Counted from the first letter of the stretch, positions 23,413-25,084 are shown. The stretch: 64,000 nucleotides of DNA from Xylographa opegraphella (GCA_022813865.1 JALDZX010000015.1:186001-250000), one strand, 5' to 3'. Made by a program: numbers and translations. The notes: a model not told the origin generated them from the letters alone.

Positions 23413-25084
23413 ATGGCTGCTAAAGTTAGTGAAGGTCTCGAGAAGCTCCAACGTATGTGCACACTATCAGGCCCCAAGATCGTGTTCCGTATCTGATCAA
23501 ATACCATGCTAGTGGATCAATCAAAGAAGAGTAACGGAGCTTCGAATGGCACAACACCGGGCGGGATAGATGCGGAGCCTGACGAATCAGACGACGACAA
23601 GGAGGATGATGGCCCCACCGCGGATGCTGGGACCCCTGGAGGTATGTCCCTATACCTATACCACATTGCGGTTCACGCCGAGGTAGTGGTGCTGAGACTA
23701 TGCAGCTGCAAAGAAGAAGAAGAAGAGAAAGCCCAAGAAGAAGAAAGCTGCTGGTGGTGTCCCTAAAGCTCAAAGCGACCCGCCAAGAGTATTGCTCTCC
23801 AACCTGTTCCCCAACGGCCAGTACCCGGAAGGCGAGACGGTCGAATACCGGAACGAGAACAGCTATAGGACCACCAACGAAGAGAAGAGGCATCTCGATC
23901 GCATGAACATTGACTTTCTTAGCGATTATCGCCAAGGCGCTGAGATCCATAGACAAGTCAGGCAGTGGGCGCAGAAGAATATCAAGCCGGGGCAGTCGCT
24001 GACCGAGATAGCAGAAGGCATCGAGGATGGTGTAAGAGCCTTGACGGGGCATAATGGTCTAGAAGAAGGTGACAACATCAAGGGCGGCATCGGGTTCCCT
24101 ACTGGCCTCAACTTGAACCACATTGCGGCGCACTACTCGCCCAATGCAGGAAACAAGACTGTTTTGCAATATGGGGATGTTATGAAAGTCGACTTCGGCG
24201 TGCATGTCAATGGTTGGATTGTGGACAGCGCGTGGACTTTGACATTTGATCCGGTCTACGACAATCTACTGGCTGCTGTGAAGGATGGTACAAACACAGG
24301 CATCAGGGTGGGTTTCGAGTCTCCAGCTCATGTTCTGTCACACAAGCTGAATGAGTCCAACAGGAAGCTGGCATTGATGTCAGGATGAGCGACATTGGCG
24401 CCGCAATACAGGAAGCGATGGAGAGCTACGAAGTCGAGCTCAATGGCCAGACTTACCCGGTGAAGTGCATTCGGAATCTCAACGGCCATGACATCGTTCA
24501 ACATAGCATCCACGGTGGCAAGAGTGTGCCTATCGTGAAAGGCGGAGACCAGACCAAAATGGAGGAGGGCGAAGTCTTCGCGATCGAGACGTTTGGGAGC
24601 ACGGGGAAAGGATATGTCAGGGACGATGTGAGTTGCTTTTGGAATGGGAACCAATGATCGTGCTGATCAAATCTAGTTGGAAACGTCACACTACGCAAAG
24701 AAGCCGGATGCTCCTAATGTCTCATTACGGGTCTCGTCGGCGCGGACTTTGCTGAACGTCATCAACAAGAACTTTGGGACCCTTCCTTTTTGTAGGAGGT
24801 ACCTTGATCGACTTGGGCAGGACAAGTATCTTCTTGGCGTAAGTCTGCACGCTTTTGTGGTTTGTCTTTTCGATAGAGACTGATTATGAGCAGCTGAATA
24901 ACCTTGTTTCGAGTGGAATAGTGGAGTCGTATCCTCCATTGGTTGATATCAAGGGGTCTTACACGGCTCAGTTCGAACATGTGAGTCATGAATCCTGGTA
25001 AACGGTCATTGCTGACACTTCTTCCCGACCATACTGCTTCGACCTACAGTGAAAGAGGTCATCAGTCGTGGAGACGATTATTGA
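23413..25084 (+). CDS. MAP2: Methionine aminopeptidase 2 (7 exons); last intron 24981-25027 appears to be GT-CG
   Basis: Poly-Lys N-terminal tract, [12 protein letters not shown]...[71 protein letters not shown]. Confidence 0.96.

Follow-up and report, generated by a model that had tools for sequence, protein, structure and literature searches.

GT-CG introns are rare, but a fungus and Drosophila already provide documented examples. The curated annotation of Ganoderma lingzhi contains 19 of them, or 0.0206% (PMC11590231, Table 1), and the R6.04 annotation of Drosophila melanogaster contains 8, with RNA-seq junction support tabulated for 8/8 (PMC4528330, Table 3). According to the latter source, a similar alternative splice lies near all 8 of the Drosophila introns, and none of them is presented there as a sole acceptor. 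GT-CG counts are absent from the main text of Frey and Pucker (2020; PMC7072748). Loss of the acceptor adenosine has been described in other contexts as well. The vertebrate BANP gene is reported to carry a conserved GT-GG intron, the GG of which is AG in fish (PMC4176328), and human disease mutations at acceptor position -2 are reported to abolish the AG by a single-base change, with a downstream AG acting as a cryptic site (PMC1636351). In the yeast P complex, G(-1) of the 3' splice site is described as pairing with G(+1) of the 5' splice site and A(-2) as pairing with the branch adenosine, and mutation of the invariant splice-site nucleotides is reported to impair mRNA formation in that organism. 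Yeast 3' sites located <21 nt from the branch are reported to be less dependent upon Prp22, which implies less Prp22 proofreading close to the branch, and branch-proximal non-consensus 3' sites are used in yeast without Fyv6 or Prp18; "BG" sites, by the same account, are proofread and rejected by Prp22, with the wild-type factors favouring a distal consensus YAG (PMC11651659).

The locus considered here is the last intron of the gene for MetAP2 (type II methionine aminopeptidase) in Xylographa opegraphella, which has CG where an acceptor AG is expected. It was analysed within a window of 64,000 nucleotides (GCA_022813865.1, JALDZX010000015.1:186001-250000), from whose first letter all positions are counted, and at best it adds another example to the GT-CG introns already on record. 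Like the introns of Ganoderma and Drosophila as tabulated, it combines a U2-type donor with a one-base departure from GT-AG at acceptor position -2, and like 6/8 of the Drosophila introns it lies within coding sequence. However, the Ganoderma and Drosophila cases rest on transcripts, whereas the MetAP2 case was read from DNA sequence; further, the fly introns have a canonical alternative nearby, whereas the nearest AG at MetAP2 is 22 nt away and breaks the continuation of the reading frame. As in BANP, an ancestral AG would have been altered at -2, and in BANP the junction stayed in use; the BANP site, however, is a GG conserved across many species, whereas the MetAP2 change is to CG and would be confined to one. 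The arrangement also resembles that reported for yeast lacking Fyv6 or Prp18, in which a consensus YAG at least 21 nt from the branch faces competition from a non-AG site at <21 nt, as would be the case at MetAP2, although the yeast branch-proximal sites were active in the mutants and not in the wild type (PMC11651659), unlike the use proposed here. With the human acceptor mutations the locus shares the single-base loss of AG and the presence of a downstream AG that could serve as a cryptic site, but aberrant transcripts are documented for the human cases (PMC1636351), while the present case is a fungal intron of 47 nt known as genomic sequence.

The MetAP2 gene and its neighbourhood

In an exon model derived from the sequence, MetAP2 occupies positions 23413-25084 of the plus strand, bounded by its start codon and by the stop that closes the conserved frame. 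The model was set against the only public protein model of the gene, GenBank MCJ1283567.1 (P0121, 434 aa, X. opegraphella). Exon 1 (23413-23452) matches that protein exactly; exons 2 (23513-23641), 3 (23706-24307), 4 (24364-24627) and 5 (24677-24838) are likewise supported by comparison with it, and exons 3 and 5 by homologue search in addition. Exon 6 (24894-24980) ends in AQFEH, the last three codons being TTC GAA CAT, and its Glu427 occupies an invariant alignment column. The intervening introns are all canonical GT-AG: intron 1 (23453-23512, 60 nt, GTATGT...TAG), intron 2 (23642-23705, 64 nt, GTATGT...CAG), intron 3 (24308-24363, 56 nt, GTGGGT...CAG), intron 4 (24628-24676, 49 nt, GTGAGT...TAG) and intron 5 (24839-24893, 55 nt, GTAAGT...CAG), with branch adenosines located 16, 10, 13, 10 and 10 nt from the respective intron ends. 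No frameshift or stop interrupts the six exons. These five introns of the gene itself served as the yardstick for the sixth, and a heuristic scan of the window, which returned 40 candidate introns, many of them overlapping or false, was excluded from the statistics.

The first-pass annotation had assigned the gene to MetAP2, and this assignment is upheld by several comparisons. Exon 3 as a query retrieved MetAP2 proteins at E 3e-127, the top matches being from Xylographa at 96-97% identity; PF00557 is precomputed for the protein cluster of the top match, whose 90% cluster has 8 members, MCJ1283567.1 among them. TIGR00501, which defines type II methionine aminopeptidases, matches P0121 at E 3e-97 with 325.7 bits, above the cut-off of 222.65, and a comparison with the ortholog P0125 recovers solved MetAP2 chains at E 1.5e-194. 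D219, D230, H299, E332 and E427, which we take to be the MetAP2 metal ligands (Asp, Asp, His, Glu, Glu), form invariant columns in an alignment of 38 homologues and are all present in P0121. A tblastn search found neither a second MetAP2 locus nor a second tail-coding stretch in the 64-kb window. Separately, the protein carries the motif NHIAAHY (24112-24132, in the context ..NLNHIAAHY..), the Ile of which is found in all Xylographa MetAP2 and in P0132 of Agyrium rufum; NHCAAHY, with Cys in place of the Ile, is the majority form among the 38 aligned homologues. This Ile adjoins the histidine bound by fumagillin.

Pfam matches identify the surrounding genes as an Asn synthase (17845-19814, plus strand), a porin (20876-21421, plus strand), a DnaJ protein transcribed divergently from MetAP2 (22012-22974, minus strand) and, downstream of MetAP2 on the same strand, a fatty-acid-desaturase-like ORF (26833-27381, plus strand), with OTU1 and GNAT as further housekeeping neighbours. 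Between 24388 and 26833, no ORF of at least 120 aa is present on either strand. That this MetAP2 might be a self-resistance copy within a biosynthetic cluster was considered and rejected, as its neighbours are housekeeping genes. Three Aspergillus models of about 850 aa (P0079, P0087 and P0120) fuse MetAP2 with Lipid_DES and FA_desaturase domains, which suggests conserved synteny together with run-on annotation past the MetAP2 terminal exon. In other fungi, several database models fuse Asn synthase with a porin (PF01459) or with a UBC-type domain (PF00179); these too are likely run-on models that reflect conserved gene order. Elsewhere in the window, 46001-48000 is the part richest in GC (0.667, versus about 0.47-0.58 elsewhere), and this stretch holds long overlapping ORFs at 45868-46725 (plus strand) and 46047-47366 (minus strand), both without a Pfam match.

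The last intron, the GenBank model and the congeners

Intron 6 (24981-25027, 47 nt) begins with GTGAGT (24981-24986), in agreement with the fungal donor consensus GTRNGT, and contains the branch site GCTGAC (25011-25016, with its A at 25015), a CTRAY motif within 10-20 nt upstream of the acceptor. The branch A is 12 nt from the intron end. A pyrimidine-rich run, ACTTCTTCCCG, ends at 25027, and pyrimidines make up 75% of the 12 nt that precede the last three bases, the highest value of the six introns. Whereas introns 1-5 all terminate in YAG, intron 6 terminates in CCG: G(-1) and the pyrimidine at -3 are preserved, and A(-2) alone is replaced, the odd base of the CG (25026-25027) being C25026. 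Branch spacing, pyrimidine tract, G(-1) and Y(-3) mark this as a genuine intron position. Assignment to the U12 type was rejected: U12-type introns have an extended donor (A/G)TATCCTT and a TCCTTAAC-like branch site, whereas intron 6 has the donor GTGAGTCA and the branch GCTGAC.

From 24981 onwards, AG dinucleotides occur at 24984, within GTGAGT, and then at 25048, 25054, 25056 and later, such that the 62 nt from 24986 to 25047 are AG-free (P about 0.017 at the window AG frequency of 0.064). Retention of the intron produces FEHVSHESW*, terminated by the TAA at 24999-25001. Splicing to the first downstream YAG, a CAG at 25047-25049 that lies 34 nt from the branch A, places a TGA straight after FEH and gives a protein of 428 aa, and splicing to the AG at 25056-25057 keeps the frame at the cost of ten residues. 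In the conserved frame, the terminal exon (25028-25084, ACC ATA ... GAT TAT TGA) encodes 18 residues followed by TGA, and the junction 24980^25028 is the sole way to join this tail to FEH. The intron begins with G and the downstream exon with A, while the preceding exon ends with T and the intron with G; as these flanking bases prevent the junction from sliding, only GT...CG restores the conserved frame. The first-pass annotation had described the exon end, the donor, the branch site and the ACC...TGA exon, had stated that no AG intervenes between the branch point and ACC, and had traced the consequences of the downstream AGs and of retention; in each of these respects its account agrees with the sequence.

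Its further statement, that the segment after the CG is the conserved MetAP2 C-terminus, likewise holds, as the translation of 25028-25081 is identical at 18/18 positions to the ends of the MetAP2 proteins of six congeners, with the stop at the same place, and forms part of the TIGR00501 core. Judged by this alignment, the tail match and shared stop are beyond chance. X. vitiligo, X. parallela, X. trunciseda, X. soralifera and X. pallens all have MetAP2 models of 446 aa with the identical 18-residue tail. The model of X. carneopallida (P0002), a species listed beside X. opegraphella in the label order of the supplementary trees of PMC9098629, has 447 aa and the same tail, preceded by an additional V that separates FEH from TILL and falls exactly at the junction homologous to 24980/25028 of the window. 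This extra V could stem from a 3-nt change at either the donor or the acceptor. The public X. opegraphella model, MCJ1283567.1, is by contrast the retained-intron translation letter for letter, in that it reads through intron 6 and ends in FEHVSHESW.

Ab initio predictors such as Augustus, snap, GeneMark-ES and GlimmerHMM generally accept canonical splice sites only. The Xylographa genomes were annotated with funannotate using these four predictors, and RNA-seq is absent from the Methods of that publication (PMC9098629). Full-length congener models that ab initio predictors were able to build thus imply canonical acceptors in the congeners, and such canonical-looking models in turn point to a CG that is young and species-specific, not to a conserved non-canonical site. 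Most simply, the acceptor would have been canonical ancestrally, and the CG would have arisen in this species alone by substitution of a single base at position -2. A JGI sequence (P0128, 231 aa, from a contig of 1292 nt) is an intron-free MetAP2 fragment, 98% identical to exon 5, with the full tail. Its residues are those of other Xylographa species (AVRDGTNTGIKE, VEAYPP), and its source is a different Xylographa-like fungus. P0128 is presumably transcript-derived and, if so, shows that a close relative, as distinct from X. opegraphella, splices the last intron normally. Among more distant models, MetAP2 of Loxospora ochrophaea (P0017) ends in FEHVNSILASFKEHC, a read-through into the same last intron like that of the X. 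opegraphella model, and the partial model of Peltigera leucophlebia (P0006) stops exactly at FEH; these ends may represent either predictor failure on a 57-nt terminal exon or further odd acceptors. P0121 resembles the ab initio read-through models that miss a short terminal exon, as it ends within the intron just as P0017 does, but the read-through of P0121 was forced by the absence of any AG and is not due to predictor weakness alone.

The portion of the protein at stake belongs to the profile of the family. The ortholog P0125 matches TIGR00501 over profile positions 10-294 of 295, whereas P0121 matches only to 281, and the C-terminal core corresponding to positions 282-294 is encoded at 25028-25081, where it is reached solely via the GT-CG junction. 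In the alignment of 38 full-length homologues, 15/18 tail positions are conserved at 90% or more, a figure conditional on these homologues having been hand-picked, with full tail, from 83. The ending RG[DE]DY is present in 83/125 retrieved sequences, the remainder being mostly fragments or read-through calls, and solved MetAP2 chains align up to the last residue of the tail. MetAP2 itself is kept in all related fungi listed by the homologue searches. By these comparisons, the 18-residue tail looks important. A structure prediction for P0125 from the 38-sequence alignment (mean pLDDT 36.9, pTM 0.25) was uninformative on the structural role of the tail.

Use of the CG acceptor and competing explanations

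Taken together, these data lead us to favour, tentatively and at somewhat less than an even chance, a model in which the CG is real, arose by a species-specific change of AG to CG and is used at least in part; the reality of the base, the ancestral AG and the use of CG are the elements that we infer. The first-pass annotation had likewise proposed that CG serves as the 3' splice site in this intron, a proposal that is plausible and partly borne out by the anatomy of the gene. The model proposes that the conserved last intron of a housekeeping MetAP2 gene, single-copy in appearance, had its acceptor changed from YAG to CCG in this lineage or strain. U1 would pair with the GTGAGT donor and U2 would bind at GCTGAC, and branching at A25015 would probably be unchanged. 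For exon ligation, the spliceosome may still dock the old site, which lies 12 nt from the branch with G(-1) and Y(-3) preserved. A(-2), the partner of the branch adenosine, would be lost at this site, but G(-1) could still pair with G(+1) of the 5' splice site, and with G(-1) retained and A(-2) replaced the CG site would thereby keep one of two contacts. Ligation at the branch-proximal CG in a meaningful share of transcripts would yield the full enzyme of 446 aa, and the remaining transcripts would use the CAG at 25047-25049 (ending in FEH, 428 aa) or retain the intron (434 aa, as in the GenBank model). The strong donor, the exact GCTGAC, the 12-nt spacing and the best pyrimidine tract of the six introns count in favour of CG use; the consensus CAG located 22 nt downstream of the CG, and 34 nt from the branch, counts against it. 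Use of the CG is also favoured by the intact state of the gene and its tail, by the lesser Prp22 dependence of yeast sites <21 nt from the branch and by the precedents of Ganoderma, Drosophila and BANP, and disfavoured by the Prp22 rejection of "BG" sites, by the impaired mRNA formation of yeast splice-site mutants and by the alternative splices near all 8 fly introns. As the CG is young and the congener models are full-length, the CG bears no sign of being kept by selection. The stronger proposition, that this is a sole and constitutive GT-CG intron, recently derived from AG and spliced efficiently thanks to the 12-nt branch distance, is doubtful.

It is also quite possible that the lesion is real and the CG essentially unused, in which case splicing to the CAG at 25047-25049 or intron retention would leave a MetAP2 of 428 or 434 aa that is missing the C-terminal 18 residues. 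The gene would then have become either hypomorphic or a recent pseudogene, a state made tolerable by a type I methionine aminopeptidase that takes over the function; yeast survives the loss of the type II enzyme. Such an outcome is in line with yeast data in which the branch adenosine reads A(-2) directly and its mutation impairs exon ligation, and with the reported rejection of "BG" sites by Prp22 and preference of wild-type second-step factors for a branch-distal consensus YAG (PMC11651659), which the CAG at 34 nt from the branch would provide. That distance, however, is far outside the branch-to-acceptor spacing of 10-16 nt in the other introns. The recency of the change, with five congeners canonical and full-length, the unchanged tail, which fits a recent event, and a GenBank model that equals the truncated form all accord with an unused site. 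On the other hand, tail-bearing MetAP2 is kept in all listed related fungi, with RG[DE]DY widespread among the retrieved sequences, and the tail belongs to the conserved core, so that its loss should face selection; nor is there a second disabling change anywhere in the gene.

The state of the gene outside intron 6 bears on both of these explanations. The first-pass annotation had considered the rest of the gene intact and hence not a pseudogene. The first part of this statement stands, as all five other introns are GT-AG and no second lesion was found: the six exons carry no frameshifts, stops, lost catalytic residues or accelerated substitution of the kind that marks pseudogenes. The second part is weakened, as the unchanged tail says little on selection. 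X. opegraphella MetAP2 has 8 private substitutions within residues 1-428, all of them at or before residue 154, so that an unchanged tail of 18 residues would be expected whether or not it was translated recently. On this comparison, the intact tail is weak evidence of continued selection, and the absence of further disabling changes is still compatible with a very young pseudogene.

An assembly or consensus error, with a true CAG or TAG at 25025-25027 that would make this a standard GT-AG intron like that of the congeners, is unlikely. The intron is one base short of a perfect canonical intron, everything else about it matches the congeners, and A>C or T>G is a common type of Illumina miscall. 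The genome was obtained from an axenic culture by Illumina paired-end sequencing, and the trimmed reads were assembled with ABySS 2.0.1 at K=65 (PMC9098629, supplement); as described, this is an unpolished short-read assembly with annotation that was ab initio only, the locus having gone unexamined by the annotators (PMC9098629). Arguing against an error, a k-mer assembler needs majority read support in unique sequence, the axenic culture supplied the DNA, and neither N's nor repeats are present at the site. Majority-supported substitution errors are generally rare in the unique sequence of such assemblies. In addition, two introns of the neighbouring Asn synthase gene are clean GT...AG, a very small control, and the exon matches that flank its intron at 19378-19424 are uninterrupted at 82-83% identity to the homologue P0221.

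The tail might in principle be reached otherwise, through an intron of the U12 or some other unusual type, an acceptor edited in the RNA, a duplicate of the terminal exon or an RNA fold that steers the choice of 3' site. Nothing was found in favour of these routes, and they are very improbable, since the GTGAGT donor is not of U12 type, the window holds no second tail stretch or MetAP2 locus, the segment 24960-25090 folds no more stably than its shuffles (z +1.18, with 178/200 shuffles at least as stable), and Rfam and tRNA scans of the window gave no matches.

Consequences for annotation and for splice-site choice

The C-terminus of the public MetAP2 protein of X. opegraphella is almost certainly incorrect or incomplete, and gene callers restricted to GT-AG silently convert acceptors of this kind into truncated models. 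Should the CG be a lesion or an assembly error, the case would be an ordinary one, in which a draft genome contains one base that is damaged or wrongly called. The MetAP2 case gains some interest from sister species with a canonical site and from the branch-proximal geometry. If the CG is real and used, the intron would constitute a clean natural change of an acceptor from AG to CG that still works, with close canonical relatives as controls, and would allow a test of whether, as yeast mutants suggest, 3' sites very near the branch escape strict proofreading for AG. If, further, the sole and constitutive use of GT-CG holds true, the locus would represent a natural experiment, conducted with a wild-type spliceosome, on whether proximity to the branch may replace the contact between A(-2) and the branch adenosine.
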